From an uncultured Anaerolineales bacterium (GTDB lineage Bacteria > Chloroflexota > Anaerolineae > B4-G1), in assembly GCA_964474655.1 (NCBI GenBank), contig CAYYTU010000004.1, forward strand, positions 2,563-66,562: a stretch of DNA of 64,000 nt. Direction: 5' to 3'. Positions 4,529 to 30,040 of this stretch are shown one piece after another. A program made the translations under genes and the position numbers. Numbering within the stretch: the stretch's first letter is position 1; each line of letters starts with the position of its first letter. The notes beneath the pieces are model-generated. The model saw nothing but the letters and a program-made list of their open reading frames with translations. It had not been told where the DNA came from and did no database searches.

Positions 4529-4684
4529 ACTACAACGAGATTTGGAGCTAAACCAGACTTCCGGAATCTGCTTGCTGGGTCACAAATCGACCCAGGACCT
4601 TCTCTTGGATTGAATAGATAGCCAACTGAATGCAAATTTAGAGACTTCGGAAGTCCATCAGGCCGAAACTTCGTTGTAGTATTA
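4529..4684. repeat. Repeat family A, copy A1. About 156-bp non-coding MITE-like element with 11-bp terminal inverted repeats ACTACAACGAG...CTTCGTTGTAGT.
   Basis: Left end ACTACAACGAG at 4529, right end CGTTGTAGTATTAG at about 4671-4685. Internal palindrome GACTTCGGAAGTC at 4643-4655. The same termini recur at 6952, 12828 and 24935. Confidence 0.7.
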
Positions 4685-4714
4685 GAAAGCGCCAGAAGAA
4701 CCAGGAGTTATGAT

Positions 4715-5728
4715 ATGAGCATCAATCAAGTGACGATTATTGAGACTACTCCGTTCAGTGTCTCCATCGCACTGAAGCTAAAGGAGGAGCATGAAGACCT
4801 GACGATCGTGGGGTATAGCGCCGAAGCCGCGGCGGGTGACCTGGTCCGCGCCCAGGGCGTGTTCGATCGCGTGGAACGAGAGCCAGGCCGGGCCTGTGAG
4901 GAAGCCGACATGGTCATTGTGACCACGCCCCTTGAGGCGATTCGAGAGATGTTCGGTGCTATCGCACCGCACCTCCGACCCGGCTGCCTGATCACAGACA
5001 CCGCCGCGCTTAAGGCCCCTGTGGCGCGCTGGGCTGAGGAGATTCTTCCTCAGAACGCCGAGTTCGTCGGCGGACACGTCCTGCTCAATCCGGTCACCGC
5101 CGACCGTTCCAGCTCCTCAGAGGAACCAGGCCCGGCCCGCGCCGATCTGCTGAAGCACGCGCTCTACTGCTTCACCCCTCTGCCAGAGACCTCCGCTGCC
5201 GCGCTCGATACCTGCTCCAACCTGGCCTGGACGCTGGAAGCCTACCCTTTCTTCATCGACGTCACCGAGCACGATGGTCTGGAGGCCGTTAAGGGCTTGA
5301 CCGAACTGGCAGCGGTGGCGTTGCTACGCTCCACCGTGGACTCCCCGGGTTGGCAAGAGATGCGAAAGTTCGCCGGCGAGCACTTCGCGACCACGACGGC
5401 CACGGTCGAGCGAGCCCGCGAGCGCCAGCAGGCGATCCTCCTCAACCGCGAGCATATCGCCCAGCGCATCGACGTGCTTGTGGAGGAGCTGATGCGCTTG
5501 CGGTCTCTGCTCGTCAGCAACGAGGCCGAGAAGCTGGCCGATGTCCTGCTCCAGGCCGCCGAGGGGCGCGAGCGCTGGGTCCAGGCGCGCCAACAAGGAA
5601 TGTGGGGCGATAAAGAGGCTTTCGATATGGAGAACGCGCCAGGTATGGGCGAAAGGTTTACCCGGATGGTCTTCGGCGGCCTCGGCGCCCGTCTGAAAAA
5701 AGCCGCCGGCCGCGATCAGGACGACTAG
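4715..5728 (+). CDS. Prephenate/arogenate dehydrogenase (TyrA) family protein with degenerate N-terminal dinucleotide-binding motif
   Basis: FVGGHVLLNP aligns with TyrA GGHPMAG. HDGLEAVKGLTELAAVALL aligns with TyrA HD...SHLPH. The N-terminus TIIETTPFSVSIALKL lacks a GxGxxG. Confidence 0.5.
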   Translation: MSINQVTIIETTPFSVSIALKLKEEHEDLTIVGYSAEAAAGDLVRAQGVFDRVEREPGRACEEADMVIVTTPLEAIREMFGAIAPHLRPGCLITDTAALKAPVARWAEEILPQNAEFVGGHVLLNPVTADRSSSSEEPGPARADLLKHALYCFTPLPETSAAALDTCSNLAWTLEAYPFFIDVTEHDGLEAVKGLTELAAVALLRSTVDSPGWQEMRKFAGEHFATTTATVERARERQQAILLNREHIAQRIDVLVEELMRLRSLLVSNEAEKLADVLLQAAEGRERWVQARQQGMWGDKEAFDMENAPGMGERFTRMVFGGLGARLKKAAGRDQDD

Positions 5729-5756
5729 CGTCCCTTCATCGGTTCGATCAAGCGCC

Positions 5757-6950
5757 TTGAGCAAGATATACCGCATCTTGATGATCGCTCCTACGTCCTT
5801 CTTTCTGGATTATGGCTGTCACGTCCGCATCCTGGAGGAGGCACGAGCACTCCAGAAGCTGGGCCATCGAGTGACTATCATCACCTACTATCAGGGCCGC
5901 GACCTGCCGGATCTGGAGATCGTGCGCACCCGCCCCACGCCCTGGCGAGCCGACTACGAGGTGGGGTCCTCGCTCCACAAGATTGCCTTCGACATCCTGC
6001 TCTCCTGGACCGGGATGAAAACCGTCCTGCGACATCGCTTCGACATTGTGCACGGTCATCTACACGAGGGTGCGCTCATCGGCTACGCGCTGAGCCAACT
6101 CCGGGGCCTACCGCTGGTGGCGGATTTCCAGGGCAGTATGACCAGCGAGATGGTCGACCACCACTTCCTTGATCCTGACGGGCTGTGGTACTACTGGGCG
6201 CGGCTGCTGGAGCTGCGCATTGCACAAATGCCGGACGTAATCCTGACCAGCACGCAGATGGCCGCCCATATGCTGGACCAGGAGTTCAACTGCAACGCTC
6301 AACAGATCCATCCGCTGCCCGATTGCGTCAATCTGGACTTCTTCCACCCTCAAGCATCCAGTTCCCAGACGATAACCACGTACCGACGCGCCTTGAAAAT
6401 CCCCCCGGGCAGACCGATAGTGGCTTATTTGGGGCTCCTGGCCGATTATCAGGGCACGCCGCTGCTGGTGGAAGCAGCGCAAATCTTGAAGCAGCGTGGG
6501 CTGGACGTGCACTTTCTGATTATGGGATTCCCCGGCGTCTCGCACTACCAGGCCCTGGCCGCCGAGCTGGGCGTGGTCGACCGGGTCACGTTCACGGGAA
6601 AAGTGCCGTATGAAGAAGCCCCGGCCCACCTGGCGCTGGGCGACATCGCCGTAGCGCCCAAGATATCGGAAACTGAGGGCGCCGGCAAGATCCTCAACTA
6701 CATGGCGATGGAGCTGCCTACCGTTGCCTTCGACACGCCGGTCAGCCGGGAGTATCTGGGCAGCCTGGGCACCTACGCCGCGCCGGCAGGCGATTCGGAG
6801 GCGTTGGCCGACGCCATCGCCAGCCTTCTGGAGGACCCACAACGCTGCATCGACCTGGGCCGACGGTTGCGCCAGCGCGTCAGCCGGCACTTCTCCTGGG
6901 ACCGGGCCGGACGGCACCTTTTGAAGATCTATCAAACGATTCTCAACTAA
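5757..6950 (+). CDS. Glycosyltransferase family 4 (group 1 GT)
   Basis: GT-B GT4 signatures: N-terminal GT4 domain and C-terminal EGAGKILNYMAMELPTVAFD. TTG start at 5757; the alternative ATG at 5781 (MIAPTSFF) is equally plausible. Confidence 0.85.
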   Translation: MSKIYRILMIAPTSFFLDYGCHVRILEEARALQKLGHRVTIITYYQGRDLPDLEIVRTRPTPWRADYEVGSSLHKIAFDILLSWTGMKTVLRHRFDIVHGHLHEGALIGYALSQLRGLPLVADFQGSMTSEMVDHHFLDPDGLWYYWARLLELRIAQMPDVILTSTQMAAHMLDQEFNCNAQQIHPLPDCVNLDFFHPQASSSQTITTYRRALKIPPGRPIVAYLGLLADYQGTPLLVEAAQILKQRGLDVHFLIMGFPGVSHYQALAAELGVVDRVTFTGKVPYEEAPAHLALGDIAVAPKISETEGAGKILNYMAMELPTVAFDTPVSREYLGSLGTYAAPAGDSEALADAIASLLEDPQRCIDLGRRLRQRVSRHFSWDRAGRHLLKIYQTILN

Positions 6951-6951
6951 A

Positions 6952-7092
6952 ACTACAACGAGACTTTGACGAGCCTGTCGGAGGGTGCGATTTTCGCCAG
7001 TCGTCATCCTTCGACAGGCTTCGGCGTGAGCTCGGCCGAACGGTTCAGGATGACTATCGAAGGATCAACGTCGTTGAGATCTCATTGTAGAT
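6952..7092. repeat. Repeat family A, copy A2. Abuts the GT4 stop and carries a 13-bp hairpin module shared with A4.
   Basis: ACTACAACGAG at 6952. Internal stem GAGCCTGTCGGAGG...CCTTCGACAGGCTT. The right end CTCATTGTAGATTG is degenerate. About 90 bp is more than 90 % identical to 24950-25045. Confidence 0.65.
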
Positions 7093-7130
7093 TGACTTCT
7101 CTGCACTTTTTAAATTCTTGAGGAGCAGGG

Positions 7131-7287
7131 GCAAACGGAGCGATTCTAGGGTAGCCCAGACACATTAGATTGCCTACAGTCACGTTTATCGAGCGTATCA
7201 ACCCCAGCTTCGTTTGCCTTGTTCACGCTTTAAGGACGCTCTGTGGTCTTGAGGGCATTTTTGCTGAGCGACTTGCTTCGAAATCCC
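7131..7287 (+). repeat. Repeat family B, copy B1 (about 155-bp non-coding interspersed repeat)
   Basis: GCAAACGGAGCGATTCTAGGGTAGCCCAGACACATTAGATTGCCTACAGTCACG...CTTCGAAATCCC. About 95 % identical to 14339-14493. Internal complementary segments GCAAACGnAGC / GCTTCGTTTGC. Confidence 0.75.
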
Positions 7288-7672
7288 AGCAGAGACTTCG
7301 GAAGTCTTAAGATGTGTGGTTTGCGAACCCAATTTGGAAGCAAAGTGGGGTTATTTTGCATCCAAAATCCTCGACGGTAGACTTCCAAAGTCTGGAGTCG
7401 CTAACGTGACCTTTGACCGCCGGCCAACAAATCGCTTAATTGAATGTCGGGTACGGTTTCTTAAGCAGAATTGAGAGCAAAATGCCTATTCTAAGCCCTG
7501 AGAGGCACGTAGAGCCGCCGAGAACTTTTGTTCTATACAGTTTTTGACGTATTTCTGTCAGCGTGCCCCACAGAACGCGAAATTACAATTATGTATTTTG
7601 CTGAGAAGCGGTCAAACCTAATGCTAAACTGCGAGAGTTAAGTTGTAATACTAACTGGGAGGAGCGTTTTCT

Positions 7673-8488
7673 GTGAAGATAGTCCAACACCTGAAAGAGA
7701 TTTGGCAATATCGAGAGCTGGTCCGTAATCTAGTCGCGCGGGATCTCAAGGTCCGCTACCGCAACTCCGTGCTAGGCGTAGTCTGGTCGTGGGCCAATCC
7801 GCTGCTGATGATGGTGGTTTACACCTTGGTCTTCAATTTCCTGGCCGGGAACGCGAATTTGTCCCACTATCATGTCTTTATCCTGTGTGCCTTGCTGCCC
7901 TGGAACTTCTTCTCCCAGTCAGTGATGGGCGCCATCGGCAGCATCGTCGGCAACGCCCATCTGGTTAAAAAGGTCTATTTCCCCCGGGAGGTGCTTCCCC
8001 TCTCGATCATCTTGTCGAACCTGGTCAATTTTCTGATCGGACTGCCGGTCTTTTTTGGACTGGCTCTGATATCCGGCGCTCCGCTCACGCGCTGGGCGCT
8101 GCTACTGCCGATTCCGATCCTGGTGCAGGTCATCTTCAGCATCGGCATCTGCCTGATCCTCTCCACGCTCAATGTCTTCTACCGCGATACCCAGATCATT
8201 ATGGAAGTCTTGATGATGGCCTGGTTCTTCGTCACGCCCATCTTCTATCCCATCACGCGCGTGCCTCAAGAGGCGGCCATTCGGGGCATCACCTTCAACG
8301 CCCGCCTCTGGCTGCGTCGCTTAAATCCAATGGCCTCTATCATCGCCTCCTACCGCGACTTACTCTACTGGGGGGCGCCAACAGGGCTCGACTTCTTGCT
8401 GCGGACCGCCATCACCGCGTTGATCGTACTGGTCGTGGGCTACCTTATCTTCCTACGCTATAGCCCTCGCTTTGGAGAAGAGGTGTAG
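7673..8488 (+). CDS. ABC-2 type transporter permease (Wzm/TagG/KpsM-like polysaccharide exporter permease)
   Basis: Six-TM ABC-2 signature. The N-terminus WQYRELVRNLVARDLKVRYRNSVLGVVWSWANPLL is characteristic. GTG start preceded by GGGAGGAG. No cognate ATPase gene is adjacent. Confidence 0.85.
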   Translation: MKIVQHLKEIWQYRELVRNLVARDLKVRYRNSVLGVVWSWANPLLMMVVYTLVFNFLAGNANLSHYHVFILCALLPWNFFSQSVMGAIGSIVGNAHLVKKVYFPREVLPLSIILSNLVNFLIGLPVFFGLALISGAPLTRWALLLPIPILVQVIFSIGICLILSTLNVFYRDTQIIMEVLMMAWFFVTPIFYPITRVPQEAAIRGITFNARLWLRRLNPMASIIASYRDLLYWGAPTGLDFLLRTAITALIVLVVGYLIFLRYSPRFGEEV

Positions 8489-8494
8489 ACCAGG

Positions 8495-11053
8495 TTGCCA
8501 GTGAGCACACCCACAAGCGAATCTGGAAGAAGGGAGCGCCGATTCGCCGAGGTGATCGTCTTCTCGCCGGCCAAGGCATCGGAGAAGAAACCAGCCTTCA
8601 CGTACCATATCCCGGACGATCTGAGGAGCCAGCTGGAGGTCGGTTCGCTCGTCGTAGTGCCCTTTGGGCCGCGACGACTCTACGGACTCGTGGTCGCCCT
8701 GGGCGACGAATCACCCGTGCCAGAGACGCGTCCGGTCGGCTCACTGGTCGATCCTCAGCCTGTCCTCACACAGGAACAAATCGCGCTGGCCCGTTGGATA
8801 GCGCACGAATACCTGGCCCCGCTCCACGAATGCTTGGAATTGATGCTGCCGCCGGGATTGGTGGGCCACGCTGACGTACGGGTCAGTCTCCAGCACGACC
8901 GGCTGGAGGAGGCCGCCAACACCGAGGCCCAGGCCAGATTGCTGGCGGTGCTCCAGCGACGCGGGCCGCTGCGCGGCGCTCAGCTCGATCGCGCTCTGTC
9001 CGATATCGACTGGCGCCCGGCTTCCGAGCAGCTGGCTCGCCGGGGGATCGTCAGCCGCGAATCATTCCTGGCTCCGCCCAACGCCTCCCCCAAGCGCGTG
9101 CGCACCGTCCAGCTCGTTCCCTCGGTCGACGAGCAATCTGCGCTGGAAGGCCTGCGCAGCGATCGCTACCCACTCATTCTTGATATGTTACGGGTCGCCG
9201 ATGGGCCGGTGGCCGTCAAGCGGGTCTACGAGGAGACCGACGCCAGCCGCTACCACCTGAACAAGCTGGAGGAGCGCGGTGTGGTCACCTTCGGCAGCCA
9301 GGAGGTCTGGCGTGATCCGCTTTCCGATGTCTTCTTCGTGCCCACGGACCCGCCGCCGCTCACGCCAGACCAGGAGGTGGTCTGGACGGCCATTCGCTCC
9401 GCTGTAAAAGAGCCGGAAAGGAAGCCTGTGCCCTTTCTGCTCCACGGCGTGACCGGCTCCGGCAAGACTGAGATCTACCTCCGCGCCGTGGCCGAGGTTC
9501 TGGAGCAGGGCCAGAAGGCAATCGTACTTGTGCCGGAGATATCGCTGACGCCGCAGACCGTGGCGCGTTTCGCCGGGCGCTTCCCAGATCGCGTCGCCGT
9601 CCTCCACAGCGCTCTCACCGACGGAGAACGTTATGACACCTGGCGTCGCGCCCGAGCTGGCTTGGTCGATATCGTCGTTGGACCGCGCTCGGCGCTCTTC
9701 GCCCCGCTCTCGCCGCTAGGGCTGATCGTGTTGGACGAAGAGCATGACGACAGCTACAAGCAAGAGGCCCCGCGCCCCCGCTACCACGCCCGCGACACGG
9801 CGGTCGAGATGGCTCGCCTGAGCGACGCGACCGTCATCCTGGGTTCCGCCACGCCCAGCCTGGAATCATACCACCGGGCTCGAGAAGAGAAATTTACCTT
9901 GCTGGAGATGCCACGCCGCATTATGGGTCACACCCGCCGTCTGCAAGAGCTCCAGGCCCGTCACCACCTGGCTCATTCGCGCTACCGAGCGCTGACCGAG
10001 GGGGCTGCCGAGGCGCGTTACCTGCCCCTGCCGCCGGTGAAAATCGTCGATCTGCGTGCCGAGCTCCACGCTGGCAATCGCTCTATCTTCAGCCGCGCCC
10101 TCCAGAAGAAGATGGACCAGGCGCTGGAACGAGGGGAACAGGCGATCCTTTTCCTCAACCGGCGGGGGAGCGCCACCTTCATCCTCTGCCGTGATTGTGG
10201 GCACGTGATGGAATGTCCCCGCTGCGACACGCCGCTGACCTATCACGGTCACCAGGACCGTCTGGTCTGCCATCACTGCAACCACCGTGAGCCTCAACCC
10301 AAGCGTTGCCCATCGTGCGGCAGCCGACGCATTCGCTACTTTGGCCTGGGCACTGAGCAGCTGGAAGACGCCGTGCGGAAGCGTTGGCCCGAGGCGCGTC
10401 TGTTGCGCTGGGATAGAGATACGGCCCACACCCACGAGGCTCATACCAATATCATGAATCGCTTCGCCAGCGGCGCGGCCGACGTGCTCGTGGGGACGCA
10501 GATGATCACCAAGGGGCTGGATCTGCCGTTGGTGACCGTGGTGGGTGTCATCTCGGCCGACACGGCGCTCAATTTGCCGGACTTCCGCGCCAGCGAGCGC
10601 ACGTTCCAGCTGTTGGCCCAGGTAGCGGGCCGCGCCGGGCGCGGCCTGTTGGGCGGGCACGTTATCATCCAGACGTACCACCCCGATCATTACGCCGTCG
10701 AGGCCGCTGCCGAGCACGACTACGAGGCCTTTGCCCAGGAAGAGCTGGCTTTCCGCCGCGCGCAAGGCTATCCTCCCTATCGCCGGCTGGCCAAGCTGGT
10801 CTACGAAGATACCGACTTTCACCGCGCCCAGGCCCGCGCCGAGGCACTGGCCCAGGATTTGAGCAAGTTGCTGACGCAACGCCATCTTCCCGCCACGGAC
10901 CTGATGGGGCCTGTGCCGCCTTTCTTCGCCCGGCTGCGGGGACGCTACCGCTGGCAGATCTTGCTGCGACACCCAGATCCCCCAGCGCTCCTTGAGGCAG
11001 TCGATATTCCGCCGGGCTGGCACGTGGAAGTCGACCCAGTCAGCGTCCTGTAG
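8495..11053 (+). CDS. priA: Primosomal protein N' (replication restart helicase PriA)
   Basis: Walker A LHGVTGSGKTEIY, DEEH box, Cys4 zinc-binding CRDCGHVMECPRCDTPLTYH...CHHCNH...CPSCGS, and helicase C domain. TTG start as in the track. Confidence 0.95.
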   Translation: MPVSTPTSESGRRERRFAEVIVFSPAKASEKKPAFTYHIPDDLRSQLEVGSLVVVPFGPRRLYGLVVALGDESPVPETRPVGSLVDPQPVLTQEQIALARWIAHEYLAPLHECLELMLPPGLVGHADVRVSLQHDRLEEAANTEAQARLLAVLQRRGPLRGAQLDRALSDIDWRPASEQLARRGIVSRESFLAPPNASPKRVRTVQLVPSVDEQSALEGLRSDRYPLILDMLRVADGPVAVKRVYEETDASRYHLNKLEERGVVTFGSQEVWRDPLSDVFFVPTDPPPLTPDQEVVWTAIRSAVKEPERKPVPFLLHGVTGSGKTEIYLRAVAEVLEQGQKAIVLVPEISLTPQTVARFAGRFPDRVAVLHSALTDGERYDTWRRARAGLVDIVVGPRSALFAPLSPLGLIVLDEEHDDSYKQEAPRPRYHARDTAVEMARLSDATVILGSATPSLESYHRAREEKFTLLEMPRRIMGHTRRLQELQARHHLAHSRYRALTEGAAEARYLPLPPVKIVDLRAELHAGNRSIFSRALQKKMDQALERGEQAILFLNRRGSATFILCRDCGHVMECPRCDTPLTYHGHQDRLVCHHCNHREPQPKRCPSCGSRRIRYFGLGTEQLEDAVRKRWPEARLLRWDRDTAHTHEAHTNIMNRFASGAADVLVGTQMITKGLDLPLVTVVGVISADTALNLPDFRASERTFQLLAQVAGRAGRGLLGGHVIIQTYHPDHYAVEAAAEHDYEAFAQEELAFRRAQGYPPYRRLAKLVYEDTDFHRAQARAEALAQDLSKLLTQRHLPATDLMGPVPPFFARLRGRYRWQILLRHPDPPALLEAVDIPPGWHVEVDPVSVL

Positions 11054-11297
11054 CGTGGTAGACACAATATGCGTAAGCCTCAGTCCAACTTTGCGTTGGA
11101 GATCCCCACTCTCATCGGGGGAAGGGAAAGAGGCCGCCAGCTCAGCAGTGGCGCCTGAGATTGACATCACGGAGCGATCAAGGTATGCTTCCCCTCATCT
11201 TAATACGATCAGCCTTTGACGCTTGGATCCCTGGAGGGACGAGGGTGAGAATTAAATTCGACAGACGACGTTGGCCCGGCAACGCTCGCAACTGGAC

Positions 11298-12153
11298 GAT
11301 GTTGAGTGCGCTGCTGGTCACTTTGGTAGCAGGTAGCTGCTTGCTCGCCAAGCCGGTGCTAGGGCGCTGGGAAGTGCCCGCAACTAATGGCATTGGCGAT
11401 CAATCTCACTCCTCGGCCCAGAAGGCCATCAGCCTCACGTCGACGCCCACGCCTGTCGCCCGACCGGAGGCAGCGGAGGTCCCGATTCTGATGTACCATT
11501 ATGTCTCTGATCTGCCGGCAGACGCCAACACGTATCGACGCGATCTTACCGTCTCGCCGGAGGCTTTCCGGGCACAGTTGGAGTACCTCAAGGAAGCCGA
11601 TTACCGCACGATCACCCTCACCGATCTCCACCTTCACCTGACAGAGAGCTATCCCCTGCCAGAGAAACCCGTCATCCTCACCTTTGACGACGGCTACCGC
11701 GACGCTTACGAGGTGGTATTTCCGTTATTGTTGGATTATGGGTTCACCGGCACATTTTTCGTGCTCTCCACGCCAGCTCATCACGAGTCACCGGAGTATT
11801 TGACCTGGGATCAGATGAACGAAATGGCCCGAGCCGGTATGTCGATCCAGTCACACGGACGGGACCACGTCGATCTGCGGAATCGTTCCTACGAGTACCT
11901 GGTTTACCAGACGCTGGGTATCCAGGAGGCGATCGAACAACATACAGATATCAAACCGCGCTTCTTCTGCTATCCTGGGGGAAAACGGGACGCCAACGTG
12001 ATTAAGGTGTTGGAGTCGGCCGGCTATTGGGGAGCGGTGACGACTGAATGGGGTCAGACACACACGCGAGAAGACTTCTACGAAATGCCCCGCCTGCGCG
12101 TCCGAGGAACGGGAACGCTGGAGAGCTTCATCAAGATGCTGGAAGGCGACTGA
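11298..12153 (+). CDS. Polysaccharide deacetylase (NodB-homology, CE4) with N-terminal membrane anchor or signal
   Basis: ILTFDDGY and HGRDH NodB motifs. Start chosen at MLSALLVTLVAG (11298). The track's 11161 start adds an Arg-rich, non-protein-like extension. Confidence 0.8.
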
Positions 12154-12178
12154 ACGCCGCTGCACCACATATGTAAAA

Positions 12179-12212
12179 GGCCCGGAGGAATACTCCGGGC
12201 CTTTCCGTGTTT
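12179..12212. terminator. Bidirectional intrinsic terminator between convergent genes
   Basis: GGCCCGGA-ggaatac-TCCGGGCC 8-bp GC stem followed by TTTCCGTGTTT, with an A-run on the other side. Confidence 0.6.
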
Positions 12213-12213
12213 G

Positions 12214-12651
12214 CTAGCGCTCCGGCTCGCAAATGATGATCCTATCGCCCGAACGATCGGTGTGGATATTATACTCTTCTCCCCCTGCCGCAAGAAGCAA
12301 GCGATAACCGGGGGTAATGACCTGGGCATACATCTCTCCCTCTTGAGGGCAGCCTAAGCTGGCATCCGACCACTCGACCGCTTCCATCTCAAGCACCTCA
12401 ATCTCTTGCGGGGAGGCGTCGATCTCAGCCGCCAAGTAAGATACGGCCGCTTCCTCGATCTCCGTGCTCGATTCCGAGCCTGGCACCAATGGGGACACGG
12501 GACTGACATCTGTCTGTGGCACGGGACTTTCTCCTCTGGTGACAGGGGGCGTGAGATCGATCTCCAGAGAGGTCTCCTCCACTCCTTCACAGGCGACCAG
12601 TGCTAATCCGAGCACCAATAACGTCGTCAACATCAAGTGTCTAGCCTTCAT
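12214..12651 (-). CDS. Hypothetical secreted protein or lipoprotein
   Basis: Start at MKARHLMLTTLLVLGLALVAC (signal peptide with Cys), preceded by a strong RBS AAGGAGGTAAAG. No recognisable domain. Confidence 0.55.
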   Translation of the reverse strand: MKARHLMLTTLLVLGLALVACEGVEETSLEIDLTPPVTRGESPVPQTDVSPVSPLVPGSESSTEIEEAAVSYLAAEIDASPQEIEVLEMEAVEWSDASLGCPQEGEMYAQVITPGYRLLLAAGGEEYNIHTDRSGDRIIICEPER

Positions 12652-12827
12652 CTTTACCTCCTTGATTTTATGTACTTTTTTACTGATCCATACACGACTC
12701 ACTAACGGTCCCGGCACGCTCTATGGAGCGCTTAAATCTGCCTGGACAATTTTACTTAACTCCTGCAGTTTAGCGACTTCAGACTTCTGCTCCTCAAAAA
12801 TTTGAAAAGTGCAGGAGTCAAGTTATT

Positions 12828-12947
12828 ACTACAACGGGATTTCAACGGAGTTGATCTCTCGATAGTGATCCTGAACTTATCGAAGGATCACGACTTGGCG
12901 AAGATCGTACCTTTCGACAGGCTCGTCAGAGTCTCGTTGTAGTATTA
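12828..12947. repeat. Repeat family A, copy A3 (120 bp)
   Basis: ACTACAACGGG at 12828 and GTCTCGTTGTAGTATTA at about 12931-12947. Confidence 0.65.
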
Positions 12948-13118
12948 TGGTCAAGATCAGTAAGACACTGATTAGACGCTGATCGACCGGCTTTTGTTCC
13001 GCAAGGCGGTTAAATCCCTCGCTCAAGAGGGACAAGAAAAAGACGAACGCGCAAAGGAGGCGCCAGATGAGCAGCGCGAACCTCAGGAGCGCCAGTCAGG
13101 ACGCTGTGCTGAGTTACA

Positions 13119-14270: not shown

Positions 14271-14338
14271 ACCTCCTCCATAAAATCAGAATAGCGGCTA
14301 ACCTCGTCTCTCAATCGCCAAACACGTCGCTTAAGCGG

Positions 14339-14493
14339 CAAACGAAGCGATTCTAGGGTAGCCCAGACGCATTAGATTGCCTACAGTCACGTTTATCGAG
14401 CGCATCAACCCCAGCTTCGTTTGCCTTGTTCGCGCCTAAGCACGTTCTGTGGCCTTGAGGGCATTTTTGCTGGGCGACCTGCTTCGAAATCCC
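14339..14493 (+). repeat. Repeat family B, copy B2, inserted between the anti-sigma gene and the downstream membrane-protein gene
   Basis: About 95 % identical to B1 (7131-7287). It ends exactly at the stop of the 14494..15018 gene. Confidence 0.75.
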
Positions 14494-16676: not shown

Positions 16677-16796
16677 CCAGTACTCCTCCACCACTGGTTT
16701 ACTTGCGATGTACGGTAAACAATCTATAATTGAACTACCCTTATGCTAAATCGTGGTGAGCAAAAATGACCGCTGCTACGAGAAAACTAGAACGGG

Positions 16797-19310
16797 GTGA
16801 TAACTATGGATAAGTTAATGAAATACTTTACGAACGCAGCAAGACGTGTTTTGAAGTTAGCCCAACAAGAGGCTAAGCGGATGCATCACGTCGAAATTGG
16901 AACCGAACACCTCCTATTGGGCCTTTTACACGAGGACACAGGGGCGGCAAGTCAGGTTTTGCAGCAGCTTGGCTTACAATCAGGCGATATACAGCATTGG
17001 GTTGAAAGACTTAGCACCATCCGACAACGCTCATCATTGATCAATACCGATCCTCAGCTGACTTCCCGCACGCAAAAAGTGCTTGAGATGGCCAAAGAGG
17101 AAGCGCATCAGCGAGGAGATAGACGGATCGACACGCACCACATCCTGCTGGGCCTCATTCGGCAGGACGAAGGGACGGCGATTGAGATTCTCAGCCATCT
17201 GGGCGTCACCGATAACCAGGTACGCCGCTACACGGACCAGGCCCTGCAGCGGCAACCAGTGCTTGCCGGGAGTAAACAACGCCAAACATCGGAAACGCCG
17301 ACTACCAATAAACTGACCATTGATCTGACCGCCTGGGCGCAAGAAGACAAACTGGACCCCGTGATCGGACGCCAGCAAGAGATAGAGCGCGTCATTCAGA
17401 TCCTGGCCCGCCGGACGAAGAACAACCCCGCTCTGATCGGGGAACCAGGGGTGGGCAAGACAGCCATCGTCGAGGGGTTAGCACAGCGAATCATCACCGG
17501 CGAGGTCCCCGAGCCCCTGCTGGACAAACGTCTGCTCCAGTTCGATATCGGCTCGCTGGTGGCCGGGACGATGTATCGGGGGCAGTTTGAGGAGCGGCTC
17601 AAAAAGGTGATTGAGGAGCTCAAAGAGAGCAATAGCATCCTTTTCATCGACGAGGTTCATATGCTTGTCGGCGCCGGATCGGCTGGCTCATCAATGGACG
17701 CCGCCAATATCCTCAAGCCGGCCCTCGCACGAGGTCAGCTCCAGTGCATCGGCGCGACCACAATGGCCGAGTACCGCAAACACATCGAATCCGACGCCGC
17801 TCTGGAGCGGCGGTTCCAACCGATCACAGTTGACGAACCCACGGTCGAGGAGACAATCAAGATCCTGCGCGGCATCCGGGTACCATACGAGCGGCACCAC
17901 CAACTACACATCAGCGATGAAGCGCTAGAGGCCGCCGCCAGGCTATCGGATCGTTATATCACGGGCCGCTACCTGCCGGATAAAGCGATCGACCTGATGG
18001 ACGAAGCCGCGTCCCGCGTGCGAATGTACAAGACCCCTCAGGCCAAAAGCCTGCGCAGCATATTTGCCGATCTCAAAGAGGTACAGAAGGCCAAAGAGAA
18101 AGCCATCAAAGAAAAACAGTACGAAGAAGCTTCTGTACTGCGCGACCAGGAGCTCGATCTCCAGGATGAGCTGCGCACCCTCCGCACCGATAAAGAGGGC
18201 CGATTCTTCGAGAATGGCGGCACTGTCGAATCGGAGGATATCGCAGAAGTGGTCTCTATGTGGACGGGTATCCCTGTGACACAGATGCACGCCGACGAGC
18301 AATCGCGGCTCCTGGAGATGGAAGACGCCATCCACGAGCGGATCGTCGGGCAGGACGAGGCCATCTCGGCCATCGCCAAGGCTGTGCGCCGCGCTCGGGC
18401 CGGTCTGAAGGATCCCCGGCGCCCGATCGGCTCCTTCATCTTCCTTGGGCCCACTGGAGTCGGCAAGACGGAGCTCTCCAAGGCCCTGGCCGAGTTTATG
18501 TTCGGCAGCGAGGACGCATTGCTCCAGCTGGATATGTCCGAGTTTATGGAGCGCCACACGGTATCCCGCCTGGTCGGTGCTCCGCCCGGTTACGTGGGCT
18601 ACGATGACGCTGGACAGCTGACTGAGACTATTCGACGTCGCCCCTACACTATTGTCGTCTTCGACGAAATCGAAAAAGCTCACCAAGAGGCCTTCAATAT
18701 GTTGTTGCAGATTATGGAAGAAGGTCACCTCTCCGACGCTCGTGGGCGAAAAGTGGACTTTTCCAACGCGATCATCATTATGACCTCAAACGTCGGCGCG
18801 GAGATGATTAAACGGAGCACCAGCCTGGGCTTCGCCGCTCCGTCTGGCGATGAGACCGCCCAACGTGATTACGAGGCGATGCGAGAAAACCTGCTTGAGC
18901 AGCTCAAGCGCACCTTCCGCCCCGAGTTCCTGAACCGCGTGGATAACATCGTCGTCTTCCATTCCCTCAGCAAAGAGGACATCGCCAACATCGTCGATCT
19001 AGAGATGGACAAAGTGCGCGAACGGTTGCACGAATCCGATCTACGGATGGAAATGACCGAGGCCACCAAGGACCTGCTGGCTCAAGAAGGCTACAGCGAA
19101 GAATACGGCGCCCGTCCACTGCGCCGTGTGATCCAGGATCGAATTGAGGATGCACTGTCCGATGCTATCTTAACCGGCGAGTTTACCGAGGGCGATACGG
19201 TGCTGGTCGACGTGGAGGAGGACGAGTTCGTGCTCCGTCCGGTGGAAAAGAAAGAAGCGGAAGAAGAGGGGAAAACCGAAGAAAGCGAAGGAGCGTTGGC
19301 GCTCGCCTGA
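16797..19310 (+). CDS. clpC: ATP-dependent Clp protease ATP-binding subunit ClpC (class III Hsp100)
   Basis: Two Clp_N repeats, Walker [19 protein letters not shown] and [19 protein letters not shown], and a short UVR-like middle domain ([25 protein letters not shown]). 837 aa. The ATG at 16806 (MDKLMKYF) is an alternative start. Confidence 0.9.
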
Positions 19311-19364
19311 ACGCTATCTTTGAAGGATCAATCCCGACAAGTTAGCATAACAGCAGAAGAGAGA

Positions 19365-19397
19365 GAAGCCGCCGGTGCATTCGGCGGCTTCTTTTCG
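19365..19397. terminator. Bidirectional intrinsic terminator between clpC (+) and the GT4 gene (-)
   Basis: GAAGCCGCCG-gtgcattc-GGCGGCTTC followed by TTTTCG. Confidence 0.7.
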
Positions 19398-19420
19398 TCT
19401 CTTTACCATACCGACGTCCC

Positions 19421-20635
19421 TCATAGCAACTCCGCGTAAACATGCTCCACCTGGGGCACGATAACCCCCCAATCATAACGCTGCTCGACAAACAAACGTG
19501 CACGTCTACCCAGAGCGGCCCGTCGATCTGGTGCTCCCAGCAGCGAGACGACGGCCTCAGCAAACTCAACCGGCGTATCCGCCAGCAGTAGCTCCTGCCC
19601 GTCGCTCACTGGATACCCCTCCGCCCCCAGGCGCGTGGCGACCACAGGTCGCTCCATCGCCATCGCCTCCAGAAGCTTGAGCCGCGTCCCGCCTCCCACC
19701 CGCAGCGGTGCCACATAGACCGTCGCCCGCGCGATGTGGGGCTGGACTTTCTCTACCCAGCCCGTCAGGGTCACCGCTGGGTCATCCCGCAGCGGGTCCA
19801 GGCGGCGATGAGGACGCTGGCCCACGACGACGAACCGCACGTCGGGTACTTCGGCCTGGATGCGTGGGAGCACGCGCTGGGCAAACCAGAGCACCGCGTC
19901 GACGTTGGGGCGAAAGTCCATCGTGCCGGTGAACACGAGCGTCGGATGAGCACCCGAGGCTACCTGACGAGGGCGATAGACCCGCGTGTCGATGCCGTTG
20001 GGGACGATGGTGACCTCAAGGCCCGGGAGCAGCTGTTCAATCGCCGCGGCGTCCGCCTTGGAGACCGCCAGCACGTGATGGGCGCGGCGGCAGATGTGTG
20101 TCTCATACCGTCGCAGCCGCCGCCATTGGACCAACGAGTAGGCCGCTTGAGGCCAACGGCCCGGCATCCGCAGATCGGTCAAAAAGGCCCGCTTCTGGAG
20201 CAAGTACTCACAGTTATGATCATCGAAGACCACGAACGGAGACGGATGGACGCACGCAACCAGATCCAGGTATGGTCCCATCTCAATACCCTCGATCTGT
20301 AACACGTCGAAGCGCTCTTGCCGCAACCAGTCCACCAGGCGACTTGCATAGCCATCCGATGCCAGCCGTAACGCCATATCGGGTTTGCCGGTGAGAACCA
20401 TATCGCGCAAGCGATCACGCCGGGTCCGCGTCGGCTGAGCCACCAGATCAACCCGCTCACAGGCGTCCAGAAGCGGCGCTTGCGGCTGCGCATTCTGCCC
20501 TGCCGCCCGGAACGAAAGCAAGCTCACCTGATGTCTGGGAGCAAGTCCCTCGATCAAGCCCCAGTTCCTCAACGCAGTTCCCTTATGCGGAGGATAGGGC
20601 ACCTGAGGGGTCAGAAATAAGACTTTCATCCGCAC
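19421..20635 (-). CDS. Glycosyltransferase family 4 (group 1 GT)
   Basis: GT-B fold, C-terminal GT4 E-x7-E region (LKLLEAMAMERPVVATRLG). The N-terminus MKVLFLTPQVPYPPHKGTALRN resembles the EpsH1/PEP-CTERM-associated sugar-transferase type (from memory, not verified). Confidence 0.8.
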   Translation of the reverse strand: MRMKVLFLTPQVPYPPHKGTALRNWGLIEGLAPRHQVSLLSFRAAGQNAQPQAPLLDACERVDLVAQPTRTRRDRLRDMVLTGKPDMALRLASDGYASRLVDWLRQERFDVLQIEGIEMGPYLDLVACVHPSPFVVFDDHNCEYLLQKRAFLTDLRMPGRWPQAAYSLVQWRRLRRYETHICRRAHHVLAVSKADAAAIEQLLPGLEVTIVPNGIDTRVYRPRQVASGAHPTLVFTGTMDFRPNVDAVLWFAQRVLPRIQAEVPDVRFVVVGQRPHRRLDPLRDDPAVTLTGWVEKVQPHIARATVYVAPLRVGGGTRLKLLEAMAMERPVVATRLGAEGYPVSDGQELLLADTPVEFAEAVVSLLGAPDRRAALGRRARLFVEQRYDWGVIVPQVEHVYAELL

Positions 20636-20641
20636 GCTTCC

Positions 20642-21796
20642 TTACTCGCCCGCGAGTTCCCGGTAGACGTTCAGCGTCTCCTGCGCCGTGCGGCTCCAGG
20701 AGAAGCGTGCCGCTTGCGACAGCCCTTCCTCTCGCATCTCAGCTCGCAAAGCTACATCGGTCAAGGCGCGGGTCAGGGCCTGGGCGATATCGTCTGGATC
20801 CTCGGGATCGACCAGCAGGCCAGCCTCGCCCACTACCTCCGGCAGCGAGGCCCGATTGGCGACCACGACTGGCGTGCCACAGGCCATCGCCTCCAGCGCC
20901 GGCAGCCCGAACCCCTCATAGAACGAGGGCGTCGTCAATACACTGGCGGCATTGTAGAGAGCGGGTAGATCCTCGTCAGGCACCTGATGCAAGAATCGCA
21001 GGTGGTCGTGTAGCGACAACTGATCTACGTACTCGAAGATCTCGTCATACAGCCAGCCCTTGCCACCGATCAGAACCAGGGGAGGAGGCGTCACCTCGCC
21101 ATCAAGCAGCGTTCGATAGGCCCTCAACAGACCAGGCACATTCTTGCGCGGCTCCAACGTACCCAGGAAGAGCAGAAAGTCAGCCTCCAGATCGTAACGA
21201 GAGGCTACTGGTTGACATTTCTCCTCCGGCAAGGGGCGAAAGGCCGAATCGGCGGCCAGGTGGACGACTGAAATCTTCTCCTCCGGCATCCTTAGCAGAT
21301 GAACGAGGTCAGACTTGGTGGCGTAAGAATCCGCCAGAATATAGTGCGTATGCTCCACAGCCCACTCGATCTGCTCGTTGTAATAACGGTGGCTCTCGTC
21401 GGTCAAAAACTGAGGGTAGTATAGGAAGTTCAGATCGTGAATGGTGATGACAGAGCGGCGATAGCCAAAGGCTGGGGGGATAAAATCGGGGCTATGGAGC
21501 ACGTCGAGCCCCAGACGGGCGATCTCCACGCTTAACGCCCAGCGTTCCAGCCGATGGTGGCAGGGTGTCCAGCAAGCCACGGGATGGAAGTTGGGGCCCG
21601 GCAGCGGAGGGTCATCGTCCTTGCGACTGTGGAGTACGTAATAATCCGTATCGGCGTCTAACGCGGCCAGAGCATCAAGTAGGTGCTTGACGTAATTGCT
21701 GATACCACCGCGGGTATAATGGTCGATGCGGGCATCGATGCCTATTCGCATAGCTGGCCCCGTTAGGTGTAATGTCTCAAAGAGCGGGAGCTCCAC
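20642..21796 (-). CDS. Glycosyltransferase family 4 (group 1 GT)
   Basis: FYEGFGLPALEAMACGTPVV GT4 catalytic region. Six nt downstream of the preceding GT4 gene. Confidence 0.85.
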   Translation of the reverse strand: MELPLFETLHLTGPAMRIGIDARIDHYTRGGISNYVKHLLDALAALDADTDYYVLHSRKDDDPPLPGPNFHPVACWTPCHHRLERWALSVEIARLGLDVLHSPDFIPPAFGYRRSVITIHDLNFLYYPQFLTDESHRYYNEQIEWAVEHTHYILADSYATKSDLVHLLRMPEEKISVVHLAADSAFRPLPEEKCQPVASRYDLEADFLLFLGTLEPRKNVPGLLRAYRTLLDGEVTPPPLVLIGGKGWLYDEIFEYVDQLSLHDHLRFLHQVPDEDLPALYNAASVLTTPSFYEGFGLPALEAMACGTPVVVANRASLPEVVGEAGLLVDPEDPDDIAQALTRALTDVALRAEMREEGLSQAARFSWSRTAQETLNVYRELAGE

Positions 21797-21829
21797 CGCT
21801 GTGAGGCTGTCGGCGTTGCGACGCCACGC

Positions 21830-23767
21830 TCACACGTCCAGGTTGCGTACCTGTTTGGCGTGGGTCTGGATGAAGTGGCGTCGAGGCGGCACGCTGGAAC
21901 CCATCAGCATGCTGAAGGTCCGATCGGCCGCTGCAGCGTCTTCGATTGTCACGCGCAACAGCGTGCGATTCTCCGGGTTCATCGTCGTCTCCCAAAGCTG
22001 CTCCGGATTCATCTCACCCAACCCCTTGTAACGCTGGAGCGAGACCCGCCGTCCGTCTAGCTCCTGCAAAATTCTCGCCCGCTCCGCCTCCGAGTATGCA
22101 TAATGCTCCTCGCGCCCAGCCTTGATCAAGTAAAGGGGAGGCTGTGCGATGTACAGGTGTCCTTCCTCAATGAGCGGCTGCATATAGCGATAGAAGAAGG
22201 TTAGAAGCAACGTGCGAATGTGAGCGCCGTCGATGTCGGCATCGGTCAGCAGAATCACCCGCCCGTAGCGCAGGCCGTCCAGGCTGAACTGCCCGCCGAC
22301 GCTGGTGCCCAGGGCGGAGATTAGCGCCTGCACCTCCTTGTTCTTGAGGATGCGGTTCAGCCCCGCTCGCTCCGTGTTTAGGATCTTGCCGCGCAGGGGC
22401 AAGATGGCCTGGAAATGCCGATCGCGTCCTTGCTTGGCACTGCCGCCGGCGCTATCTCCCTCCACGATGAAGAGTTCCGAACGCGCCGCTTCCTGCTCCG
22501 AGCAATCGGCCAGCTTGCCCGGCAGGGTCAAGCTTTCCAGCGTGCTCTTGCGGATCACCAGATCACGAGCCTTACGGGCCGCTGCCCGCGCGCGGAAAGA
22601 GGTGAGACACTTGCGGATGATGTTCCGCGCGGCCGCCGACTCTCGCTCCAGAAACTCGGAGAGCGCCCGGGTGACCACCGATTCGACCATCCCTCGTACC
22701 TCGGCGTTCATCAGCTTCACCTTCGTCTGGCTCTCGAACTGGGGGTCCGGGTGCTTGACGCTGACGATGGCCGTCAACCCCTCGCGCACATCCTCGCCGG
22801 AGAAGTTAGGGTCTCTGTCTCTGAGCTTGCCCGTCTTGCGAGCATACTCGTTCATCGTGCGAGTCAATCCAGAACGGAGCCCCGTCAGGTGTGAACCGCC
22901 GTCCACAGTGTGGATCGTGTTGGCGAAGGCATAGATGGACTCGGCGTAAGATTCAGTGTACTGGAGTGCAACCTCAATCCCCACCCCGTCCTCATCCGAC
23001 TGGATATAGATCACCTCATCGTGAAGCACCTCGCGGTTGCGATTAAGATAGCGCACGAATGAAGCGATCCCCCCCTCAAAGTAGAAGGTCATATCCCGCG
23101 GGAAAGGCTGCTCTCGCTCATCGACCAGTCGGATAGAAACCTCGCTGGTGACGAAGGCCATCTCCCGCAATCTTTGCATCAGCGTATCGTAATCAAAATC
23201 CACGTCCTCGAAAATCGTACGGTCAAAGCGGAACGTGACGCGCGTGCCGCGCCCCTCAGCAGCGCCGATATCCTCTACCGGCGTGACGGGGGTTCCCTTT
23301 TCGTACCGCTGGCGGTAGCGGCGACCATCACGGGGGTTATCGATCACCACCTCCAACCACTCGGAGAGCGCATTGACAGCCGCCACACCCACACCGTGCA
23401 GTCCGCCGGAGACCTTGTAGCCGTCTCCACCGAACTTCGCTCCGGAATGGAGGCTCGTCATCACCAGCTCCAGGGTTGAGATGCCCTTTTCTGGATGGCG
23501 GGCGGTGGGAATGCCACGCCCATTATCCGCCACCGTGACCGAGGAATCGGCATGGATGATAATTTCGATGCTGTCACAGAGCCCCACCAGGGCCTCGTCA
23601 ATCGCGTTGTCGACCACCTCGTATACCAGGTGGTGCAACGCCCGCAGATCCGTGCCGCCGACGTACATACCGGGCCGGCGGCGGACGGCTTCCAGTCCCT
23701 CCAATACCTGAACGTCATCCGCTTCGTAACGGCCAATCTGACTCATAGCCCTATGCATCACAATCAC
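21830..23767 (-). CDS. gyrB: DNA gyrase subunit B
   Basis: [43 protein letters not shown] (GHKL ATPase), TOPRIM and C-terminal domains. About 640 aa. GTG start in GTGA overlap with the upstream gene. ATG 23758 or 23746 are alternative starts. Confidence 0.93.
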
Positions 23768-24789
23768 ACATCCCCATCAGTAACTGACGCACGTCCAATC
23801 GCGTCCACCAACCTGTCGCGATAAAACATAAAAATCGCTGCCAATACGCCGCCTGCAATGGCGCCGTTGCCCAGGATACCAACCAACAACAACCACGAAT
23901 CGCCGTCCGGGAGCGACCAAGCGTAGCCCAGGCCCTTGTAAATCACCAATCCCAATCCCACCAACCCTAGCACTGAGGGCAGTTGCGCGTGGCTTAACAC
24001 CACACTTTCCCAGACCGCTTGCACCAGACCGCGCCCCCCGATCAGAATGCTGGGAATCACGAATATCAGGTGGAGCGCCAGGTAGATGGTCAACGCCACC
24101 CCCATTACCCAAACCAACACTCCGATCGGCTCCGCGATCAGCATGGCAATTCCCATCAGCAAAAACCAAAACAAAGCGAATATCGCCCAGATCAGAAGCA
24201 GGCCTACCTCGAATAGTAAGAGGCGAAGTATCTTCCACAGGCCCCTATGCATCCCCCGCGCTTCCTCTGGTCGCTCGGGCTTTTTCTGGCCAATCAACCC
24301 TTCGGCGATCGCCATCCGACTGGCTAACTCGTTGAGGTAGAACCCTCCCAGCACCAGCCCTGCCAAAAGCAATCCCAGCCACCAGGGGATAAAAGTCAAG
24401 ACGCTCGTGATGGAGAAGACACGCGGAGAGCTCAGCGGTGAGACCGGGCCAATATGGTATTGCGCCAGCAGACTGGGCACTTGTACCATCGGTAAGCTGC
24501 CCAGAAGCGAGACCAGGTTAAACTGCTGTCCAAACTCCTCCAACAGCCGAACGGCTTGCGCGGCCTGTTGGGCCATATCTGGATTGGCGGATGCCTGCGC
24601 CTCAAACAGAGCGGAAAATCGCTGCAATAATGGAGCCACCGACAGCCTCGGGCCCAACCAGAGCAAGAGATCCAACAAAGCCGGTACCGCCGCCAGATCC
24701 AGGTTTCGACTCAAAACCTCAAATCCAGCCGTCAAACAACCGATCACCCCGCGGGGAGCGCTCGTCTCTTCTGCTCTTCTTAATTTCAT
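23764..24789 (-). CDS. Hypothetical polytopic membrane protein, translationally coupled to gyrB
   Basis: Multiple hydrophobic helices, no recognisable motif. Four-nt overlap with the gyrB start. Confidence 0.5.
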
Positions 24790-24828
24790 ACGAGCCTATA
24801 TTATACCACGACTTGAAAGGGCGGTAAA

Positions 24829-24863
24829 CCTGTCGGTGCTTTGGAACTGCTCCGTTTGCCCCC
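24829..24863. repeat. Repeat family B, truncated fragment B4
   Basis: CCTGTCGGTGCTTTGGAACTGCTCCGTTTGCCCC matches the B3 terminal module, with an internal deletion. Confidence 0.5.
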
Positions 24864-24934
24864 AATCAGATTGACTTTACCGCGTAGACATCTTGGCGTA
24901 TAATATCGCCTTGCATAGATCATGCAACTTATGA

Positions 24935-25218
24935 CTACAACGAGGCTTTGACGAGCCTCTCGAAGGGTGCGATTTTCGCCAAGTCGTCATCCTTCGACAG
25001 GCTTCGGCGTGAGCTCAGCCGAATGGATCAGGATGACTATCGATTGGACTTTGGACAAAGCTCGCAAGACCTTCCCGAAAGCTTTCAGAAGTGGTGAAGC
25101 TAGCCGAAAACTTTTTAGACTGTTCGTTTCAACTTTCGGGAAGGTTCTCAGCAGAGATCTAAGTTTTATCCAAAGTCCAGTATTGAGAGTCAACTTTGTT
25201 GAAACCTCGTTGTAGCAT
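24935..25218. repeat. Repeat family A, copy A4 (284 bp, the longest copy). Carries the A2-type hairpin module plus an extra AT-rich segment.
   Basis: ACTACAACGAG at 24935 and CCTCGTTGTAGCATTA at 25203-25218. Internal stem GAGCCTCTCGAAGG...CCTTCGACAGGCTT. The track ORFs 24967..25215(+) and 24987..25193(-) lie wholly inside it. Confidence 0.65.
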
Positions 25219-25247
25219 TATGAGATGGTACTAAGGAGGTTATGTTG

Positions 25248-29967: not shown

Positions 29968-30040
29968 GATTGTCGCTCACGACTTACTTACGCCACGTCA
30001 ATCATGGCGCTATGCAGCGAAACGGTCTACTGCCCCTTCG

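Follow-up and report, generated by a model that had tools for sequence, protein, structure and literature searches.

Four short non-coding elements in the genome of an uncultured Anaerolineales bacterium (Chloroflexota) probably belong to one family of non-autonomous DNA elements that are MITE-like and specific to this lineage, referred to here as family A. The best reading of this family is that of an ordinary, decaying set of MITE-like elements with terminal inverted repeats, i.e., of a kind already known. All four copies occur in a 21-kb part of the 64-kb window (the whole stretch of DNA analysed, 64,000 nucleotides in length), and one of them is inverted. They are repeated, bounded by inverted ends, non-coding and present in both orientations; they have flanking direct repeats and empty orthologous sites, and one copy carries another element nested within it. 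It is these properties (the flanking repeats being of a TA/TTAW type), together with the ending of same-organism contigs at repeat edges, that support the MITE-like reading. A first-pass annotation of the same DNA had left the choice between a MITE-like and a REP-like mobile repeat; the inverted ends, the lack of coding sequence and the empty sites support the former, and the size of the unit and the anatomy of its GTAG motif speak against the latter.

Table 1. Family A elements and the modules nested in or adjoining them (positions within the window).
Element	Position	Strand	Description
A1	4529-4684	.	156 nt; ends ACTACAACGAGATTT (left) and AAACTTCGTTGTAGTATTA (right); inverted repeat of 19 nt, 84%
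A2	6952-7092	+	141 nt; from type-1 end (ACTACAACGAGACTTTGACGAGCC) to type-2 end (TCAACGTCGTTGAGATCTCATTGTAGA); right end decayed
A3	12828-12947	-	120-nt inverted copy of the A2/A4 type; about 25 nt of the interior gone
A4	24934-25220	+	287-nt copy of the A2 type carrying a nested insert; TTAT at either flank
E (nested palindromic insert in A4)	25045-25179	.	135 nt; perfect 11-bp inverted ends TGGACTTTGGA / TCCAAAGTCCA
C	12754-12823	.	70 nt; inverted ends ACTTAACTCCTGCAG...GTGCAGGAGTCAAGT; type-2 end of A3 lies 4 nt away
Half copy of C	7093-7128	.	beside the type-2 end of A2; 28 nt, 93%; repeat B1 directly after

The elements do occur where the first-pass annotation had put them, and each lies between genes, as it had claimed. 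A1 is found between a gene for an HD-domain protein (stop at 4514) and one for prephenate dehydrogenase (start at 4715), A2 begins 1 nt past the TAA stop codon (6948-6950) of a GT4 glycosyltransferase gene, A3 lies between two minus-strand genes, and A4 ends about 21-27 nt ahead of the start codon of an aminotransferase gene, with a promoter-like site (24876-24904) upstream of the element. The claimed lack of coding capacity holds as well: no internal ORF of these elements, which measure 120-287 nt, is longer than 82 amino acids (in A4), and the six reading frames of A2, used as protein queries also with a view to picking up copies mis-called as ORFs, had no homologues among 5.8 billion proteins, this being a weak test for segments of less than 50 amino acids. 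The GC content of the elements is 44-53%, as opposed to about 60% for the window.

The ends of family A follow an approximate consensus, ACTACAACGAGRYTYT, with the 11-nt core ACTACAACGAG, and pairing between them is possible over about 19 bp. With up to one mismatch allowed, this core matches nine times in the window against 0.6 times expected, a number that none of 100 shuffles reached; seven of the nine matches are element ends, and the eighth end (the right one of A2) differs from the core at two positions. Similarly, a 15-mer (TAATACTACAACGAG) with up to three mismatches allowed matches seven ends and nothing else (0.3 expected). The inverted repeats were earlier described as perfect over 11 bp, which proved too strict: in none of the four copies do the two ends pair at 11 of 11 positions. 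The core carries 0-2 mismatches per end (it reads TTCGTTGTAGT at the right end of A1, CTCATTGTAGA, with two mismatches, at that of A2, ACTACAACGGG at the left end of A3 and CTCGTTGTAGC at the right end of A4), and the repeat as a whole is an imperfect one of 16-19 nt. The interiors consist of hairpins. The other two matches to the core (at 8648 and 21374) fall within coding sequence, at chance level, and were rejected as element ends; a possible relic of a right end at 7651-7663 (GTTGTAATACTAA) has mismatches at 5 of 15 positions and was left out of the count.

As far as the interiors are concerned, A2, the reverse complement of A3 and A4 are homologous from end to end (nhmmer E-values of 1e-12 to 1e-27; 102-166 bits with model R1). 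The module common to A2 and A4, previously put at more than 90% identity, extends over 110 nt at 93.6%, and A3 matches these two, in inverted orientation, along 64 nt at 89% and 48 nt at 83% identity (nhmmer E-value of 3e-18). A1 and A3 had both been thought to share the termini only. This is true of A1, whose interior is unrelated to those of A2-A4 and which has nothing but the ends, of roughly 15 nt, in common with them (model R1 finds it weakly, with 20 bits), whereas A3, although inverted, belongs to the A2/A4 family in full. The palindrome of A1 (16 nt at 4640-4655) does recur after repeat B1, at 7291-7306. A4 owes its length to the second palindromic element, E, nested within it; this insert is missing at the corresponding point of A2 and A3.

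At least ten Anaerolineales relatives share the conserved gene order g3198-HD-PDH-GT4-ABC2-PriA, with HD-PDH and GT4-ABC2 spacers that measure 17-125 nt and are free of A sequence. Here they measure 200 and 722 nt, respectively, the GT4-ABC2 spacer of L003, the closest relative, being 18 nt long and that of the others about 20-70 nt. In L003, the PriA of which is 84% identical, the site orthologous to that of A3 is also without the element. Since the same junctions of the relatives are short and devoid of A sequence, A1, A2 and A3 are, on sequence comparison, lineage-specific insertions, the relatives being different species and not strains, so that the exact empty-site junctions are beyond reconstruction. 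Over 1.36 Mb of the relatives' loci, nhmmer, motif counting and a covariance model gave chance-level matches only. Furthermore, same-organism short-read contigs from Logan (99.98% identical) break off at 7560 and at 12815, both of them repeat edges, with contigs L001 and L002 ending at 12815, within C; that contigs end at such edges hints at more copies of family A.

Exact scans covered two collections from which the source genome is absent: that of GTDB representative genomes for the type-1 end (22 specified bases) returned no matches, and that of JGI metagenomes (21 specified bases) returned no copy and a single chance match in phage-like coding sequence. In a plasmid collection, blastn gave no match to family A. 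No autonomous IS with family A ends was found in the window, and these ends are absent from the 1.36 Mb of relatives' sequence. Nor did the 57 window ORFs scanned contain any transposase or integrase domain (i.e., no Y1 transposase, RAYT gene or integrase), which fits a non-autonomous element. Nothing relevant was found in the literature on the motif and on MITEs in Anaerolineae; as far as the literature searched goes, family A would be the first catalogued repeat family of such kind in this abundant but uncultured lineage.

One nucleotide outside the core, 4-nt direct repeats accompany A3 and A4 (TTAT/TTAT in both) and A1 (TTAA/TTAG), with a simulated P of about 4e-4, and the flanks of A2 show no clear duplication; TA occupies positions -4/-3 in seven of the eight element ends. 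The nucleotide(s) separating the core from the direct repeat are not mirrored from one end to the other. The right-hand ATTA is constant, so that the ‘duplication’ could also consist of element sequence combined with a preference for TTA targets. If the MITE-like reading is correct, family A would have spread by transposition, its mobility being provided by a partner transposase with its gene in another part of the genome. This would most likely be a DDE enzyme, from a family with TA or TTAW as its target, that bound both ends and placed the copies at A+T-rich, TA-containing sites in short spacers beside stop codons and ribosome-binding sites. The DDE families targeting TA or YTAR-like sites (IS630/Tc1-mariner and the IS5 group in the family tables of ISfinder) are a candidate lead, and family A is like them in having TA at a fixed distance outside its ends and flanks reading TTAT, TTAA, TTAG and CTAA. 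However, its outermost bases disagree with the ends typical of IS630/Tc1-mariner and of the IS5 group, any duplication would, judging from four copies, be of 2, 3 or 4 bp, and no transposase was found in the window.

Similar elements are known from other bacteria, e.g., Correia/NEMIS from Neisseria, ERIC/YPAL from Yersinia, RUP from Streptococcus and Nezha from cyanobacteria. Bacterial MITEs are non-coding, 70-300 bp long and bounded by terminal inverted repeats; they occupy TA-containing targets beside coding regions in both orientations, are co-transcribed, fold as long hairpins, vary by internal deletion or nesting and are restricted to particular lineages (PMC3733652). Family A resembles them in size, inverted ends, orientations, TA-containing targets, folding, internal variation and lineage restriction. 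It shows, however, no similarity in sequence to these elements, its host is an uncultured Anaerolineales bacterium, only four copies are seen, and its perfectly conserved core, of 11 nt (about 16-19 nt when imperfect), is shorter than the 15-30 bp usual in MITEs.

The divergence of 6-11% between the copies, their decayed ends, the internal deletion of A3 and the insertion nested in A4 suggest that most of them are probably old and immobile. Because they lie in operons or 5′ leaders, they are probably co-transcribed with their neighbours, and their transcripts would form long hairpins, possibly changing the stability or processing of the mRNA. Together with modules B, C and E, family A turns tight operon spacers of about 20 nt into spacers of over 700 nt, and its position beside stop codons and ribosome-binding sites may alter the expression of the priA, tyrA-like and aminotransferase genes. 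It coincides with the ends of same-organism short-read contigs and may help explain assembly breaks there, and its copies could be used as strain markers. The importance of all this is modest, and the current understanding of mobile DNA is left unchallenged by family A.

It could be argued that family A consists, instead, of functional structured RNAs, either cis-acting elements of mRNA stability or processing or multicopy small RNAs with a common terminal stem, the structure of which is under selection. This possibility, which the first-pass annotation had raised for small RNAs, we consider unlikely, even though the predicted folds are very stable, with z-scores of -3 to -8.5 (-54.2 kcal/mol and z of -4.9 for A1, -63.3 and -5.8 for A2, -119.5 and -8.5 for A4), all orientable copies (A2, A3 and A4; n=3) point along local transcription, and A4 stands between a promoter-like site and the gene downstream of it. 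The terminal stem, of about 19 bp, shows one compensatory change from A-U to G-C, and a second such change is seen in an internal 7-bp helix. These two double changes hint at selection on structure, and not solely at transposase binding, but they do not reach significance: in the covariance check suggested earlier, carried out on the three alignable copies, 59 of 500 shuffles did as well. Moreover, the stabler strand is not the same in A2 and A3, hence there is no consistent strand signal, and neither a terminator-like T-run nor a promoter of their own was found in the elements; a reading as intrinsic terminators was likewise rejected on their anatomy. Rfam gave no match to the whole window at the gathering score and no relevant one to the A1/A2 and A4 regions at E≤10. 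The genes downstream of the copies have unrelated functions, a decayed end, a deletion and a nested insert are all tolerated, and the relatives lack the elements both at the orthologous sites and throughout 1.36 Mb of their sequence, which is not what would be expected of a conserved RNA function.

Alternatively, an HUH tyrosine transposase, and not a DDE enzyme, could have moved the elements in the form of single-stranded hairpins, in the manner of REPIN/RAYT or ‘TIRtron’/TIRYT systems or as derivatives of IS200/IS605, which we regard as improbable. A whole element is indeed a long imperfect hairpin with further hairpins just within each end, the ends contain GTAG/CTAC and keep their pairing by compensatory changes, and the palindromic modules B, C and E in the same intergenic gaps are reminiscent of REP/BIME clusters. 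The association of moderately abundant inverted-repeat families with RAYT-like genes (Di Nocera et al. 2013, PMC3733652) also counts in favor of such movement. Like GTAG-tagged REPs/REPINs and RAYT/TIRYT repeats, family A is intergenic, palindromic and often clustered with other repeats, and it shares with them a location between unidirectional genes, plausible transcription and GTAG at the ends (PMC3733652). Nevertheless, its units are of 120-290 nt, compared to the 20-40 nt of REPs, it has flanking direct repeats, and no RAYT gene is present in the window. Its GTAG/CTAC is base-paired within the terminal stem with opposite polarity, since on its own strand GTAG follows the hairpin on the 3′ side and the adjacent hairpin is thus on the opposite side, whereas the GTAG-tagged REPs have an unpaired 5′ tag; given this size and this anatomy, a GTAG-tagged REP or REPIN was rejected. 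IS200/IS605 elements have only subterminal hairpins, with neither terminal inverted repeats nor target duplication, so the distinct inverted ends and the direct repeats flanking the elements here speak against a palindrome-associated element derived from them as well. The 57 ORFs scanned are without a Y1 transposase domain, and GGGGWSAS, common to several TIRYT repeats, is missing from family A. In a wider version, just as improbable, family A and modules B, C and E would be the Chloroflexota counterpart of REPIN/BIME systems, spread by an HUH (RAYT/TIRYT-like) transposase and later co-opted as co-transcribed elements of RNA stability or processing. If true, this would account for the fact that the ends have stayed paired and that A2, A3 and A4 are oriented with transcription.

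Finally, it is very hard to believe that the ends common to the elements serve protein binding or site-specific recombination (e.g., as integron attC-like sites or operator palindromes) and are not transposon ends, even with a conserved small palindrome (TCAAC-N3-GTTGA) in the type-2 end and with AAC...GTT in the ends, as in the R″ (RYYYAAC) and R′ (GTTRRRY) boxes of attC sites, which share one orientation in a cassette array beside intI. CTACAAC and GTTGTAG match these boxes at 5 of 7 positions only, the copies lie 2-12 kb apart in both orientations (one being inverted) with conserved housekeeping operons between them (priA, gyrB, clpC-like) and no cassette array, their neighbours have no common function and the window has no integrase, all of which made us reject an integron attC site.

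Returning to the MITE-like elements and their surroundings, element C, beside family A, may be separate from it. The half copy of C is placed and oriented relative to A2 just as C is relative to A3.

Family A is a real repeat family, though an ordinary one, and most likely consists of non-autonomous, MITE-like elements, one of the readings proposed in the first-pass annotation. What is shown is the repetition itself, the inverted ends, the insertion relative to related genomes, the flanking repeats and the nesting. The four elements lie where that annotation had placed them. The motif ACTACAACGAG, with at most one mismatch, occurs nine times in the window against 0.6 expected, a count that no shuffle attains, and seven of these matches are ends of A elements; the eighth end, the right one of A2, is found at two mismatches. 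The matches at 8648 and 21374 were rejected as further ends, being inside coding sequence and compatible with chance. Allowing up to three mismatches, the longer motif TAATACTACAACGAG finds seven ends and nothing else in the window. The terminal inverted repeat, earlier described as perfect, is so in the consensus only, since one end of every copy carries one or two mismatches. In addition, A2-type elements are asymmetric, with a type-1 end (ACTACAACGAGRCTYTGACGAGCCT, then a long hairpin) and a type-2 end (ACTACAACGRGRTYTCAAC-N3-GTTGA), and A1 is type-2-like at both ends.

Repeats and associated features in the window; flanks of A elements are 4-nt sequences one nt outside the core (left / right)
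Feature	Position	Strand	Length	Flanks, ends or context
A1	4529-4684		156 nt	TTAA / TTAG
A2	6952-7092			CTAA / decayed
A3	12828-12947			TTAT / TTAT (direct repeat)
A4	24934-25220			TTAT / TTAT (direct repeat)
E	25045-25179			nested in A4
B1 (family B)	7127-7290	+	about 160 nt	
Family B	14334-14493	+		
Family B	54599-54727	-		
Family B fragment	24835-24861			
Family B fragment	43710-43741			
C	12754-12823		70 nt	inverted ends ACTTRACTCCTGCA...TGCAGGAGTYAAGT
Half copy of C	7093-7128			adjoins A2 type-2 end
AGAGACTTCGGAAGTCT	4640-4655		16 nt	palindrome in A1
AGAGACTTCGGAAGTCT	7291-7306		16 nt	recurrence
Inverted pair	7412-7442 / 7586-7616		31 nt	71%
Promoter-like site	24876-24904			TTTACC-17-TATAAT
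GTTTCACGTGAAAC, two copies	61770-61811			15-nt perfect inverted arms
csp paralogue	30072-30254			
csp paralogue	54838-55020			

A2 and A4 are 93.6% identical over 110 nt, in agreement with the common module of more than 90% identity reported earlier. The companion claim, that A1 and A3 share only the termini, holds for A1, which has about 15 nt at each end in common with the family, apart from a palindrome that does recur after B1 as had been noted; it is wrong for A3, since this is a reverse-complement copy of the A2/A4 element (64 nt at 89% and 48 nt at 83%) from whose interior about 25 nt are missing. A4 owes its length to E, a 135-nt palindromic element with perfect 11-bp ends of its own (TGGACTTTGGA), nested at a position that A2 and A3 run through without a break. 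This insert, together with the 6-11% divergence, the decayed right end of A2 and the deletion in A3, indicates that the copies are old and mostly inactive, present-day mobility being conjectural.

At least ten Anaerolineales relatives, whose loci were fetched around PriA, share the gene order g3198-HD-PDH-GT4-ABC2-PriA. The spacer between the HD-domain and prephenate dehydrogenase genes is 200 nt in the window, most of it A1, against 17 to about 125 nt in the relatives, and that between the GT4 glycosyltransferase and ABC2 genes is 722 nt (6951-7672), where the closest relative's locus (L003) has 18 nt and other relatives have about 20-70 nt. L003 also carries the orthologous 143-aa gene without A3 and its neighbour C upstream, and keeps the adjoining sequence AAGACACTGATTAGACG. 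No family-A sequence or terminal motif rises above chance in 1.36 Mb of relatives' loci, a covariance model finds none in relatives (479 kb, window and closest relatives), and neither GTDB representative genomes nor JGI metagenomes contain a true match to the type-1 end; the sole metagenome match to it (JGI contig JAAOEI010009819.1, 2175-2197) falls on a phage-like contig, within a Gln/Ala-rich ORF of 421 aa, and is attributed to chance, unrelated to family A. The literature searched does not describe a comparable family from this lineage. Two Logan contigs (SRR7048227 and SRR7048228), 99.98% identical to the window, span exactly 7560-12815, their ends falling inside repeat-filled spacers, one of them 13 nt from A3. 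A de Bruijn assembler stops at multi-copy sequence, and the breaks are consistent with such sequence at those sites, which is suggestive, not proof.

TA occupies positions -4/-3, outward from the core, in seven of the eight ends. When 4-mers are drawn from intergenic DNA of the window, the probability that two or more of the four elements match perfectly at one of three offsets is about 4e-4. The flanks indicate one of two things: a short target-site duplication at a TTAW-like target, or a TA/TTA preference with a conserved right-end ATTA. Four copies cannot separate the two; in either case insertion by a transposase is favoured over locally evolved regulatory sequence. Such an enzyme would be encoded elsewhere (no transposase, integrase or Y1-transposase domain is present among the 57 window ORFs scanned), would most likely be a DDE enzyme with a TA-containing target recognising roughly 16-19 bp of the ends, and would have placed the copies in A+T-rich spacers adjacent to stop codons and ribosome-binding sites. 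IS630-like (TA) or IS5-group-like (YTAR) targeting would be a candidate mode.

In every copy, folding gives a closing terminal stem with internal hairpins, at energies well under those of mononucleotide shuffles (-44 to -120 kcal/mol; z -4.3 to -8.5, better strand). In the consensus of A2, reverse-complemented A3 and A4 without its insert, the terminal stem extends to about 19 bp and shows a compensatory double change (A-U to G-C in A4), with a second in a 7-bp helix, GTSATCC/GGATSAC. Of 500 shuffles, 59 equal these two changes in three sequences, and structure conservation is therefore not demonstrated; nor is there a consistent RNA-strand signal, since the more stable strand runs from type 1 to type 2 in A2 and A4 and is the opposite one in A3. 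Family A matches no Rfam family, and no intrinsic-terminator-like site coincides with an element. To judge from their placement, A4 between a promoter-like site and the downstream gene and A1, A2 and A3 between co-directional genes, co-transcription with neighbouring genes is likely, and RNA-level effects may be supposed. The REP-like option is not supported, the units being far longer than GTAG-tagged REP/REPIN sequences and GTAG being paired and lying on the other side of the neighbouring hairpin from where such REPs carry it. Inverted ends and flanking repeats speak against an IS200/IS605-type element, and a poor box fit, with no cassette array or integrase in the window, against an attC site. 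The closest functional analogues of these MITE-like elements are bacterial MITEs such as Correia/NEMIS, ERIC, RUP and Nezha (their properties being summarised in PMC3733652), to which they are unrelated in sequence.

Other small palindromic families (B, C and E) have gathered at the same landing sites. Copies of B, about 160 nt long, 80-93% identical and in both orientations, are closed by a 12-bp stem, GGCAAACGAAGC...GCTTCGTTTGCC, and match nothing in Rfam. One of the fragments is located 75 nt upstream of A4, and B1 directly adjoins the A2/C block. A full or half C stands beside the type-2 end of A3 and likewise that of A2, with the relative orientation unchanged; either A prefers insertion beside C or the two formerly moved together. 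The GT4-ABC2 spacer is a stack of A2, half C, B1, AGAGACTTCGGAAGTCT and a further inverted pair; position 7560, where the Logan contigs from the same organism end, falls within that pair.

The window comes from the chromosome of an uncultured member of the Anaerolineales/Anaerolineae (Chloroflexota), with about 60% G+C. One database protein (NCBI and Logan) matches its PriA at 100% identity and the next relative at 84%, named relatives at 66-78% being Anaerolineae or Anaerolineales MAGs, and the scanned ORFs are housekeeping genes, such as priA, gyrB, a Clp-type ATPase gene, dnaK-grpE-dnaJ, yidC, jag, parA, parB and prfA. With gyrB, yidC, jag, parA and parB at about 21800-50400 and cumulative GC skew turning at about 30-32 kb (minimum near 30000-32000), a chromosomal replication origin is probably close; the four A copies are all found to the same side of that turn. 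The GTTTCACGTGAAAC pair, about 55-100 nt upstream of a nicotinate phosphoribosyltransferase gene (61867), looks like a candidate paired operator for a regulator of NAD metabolism. Two cold-shock protein paralogues (csp) share about 70% DNA identity, and after the second come a terminator-like hairpin and, next, repeat B3.
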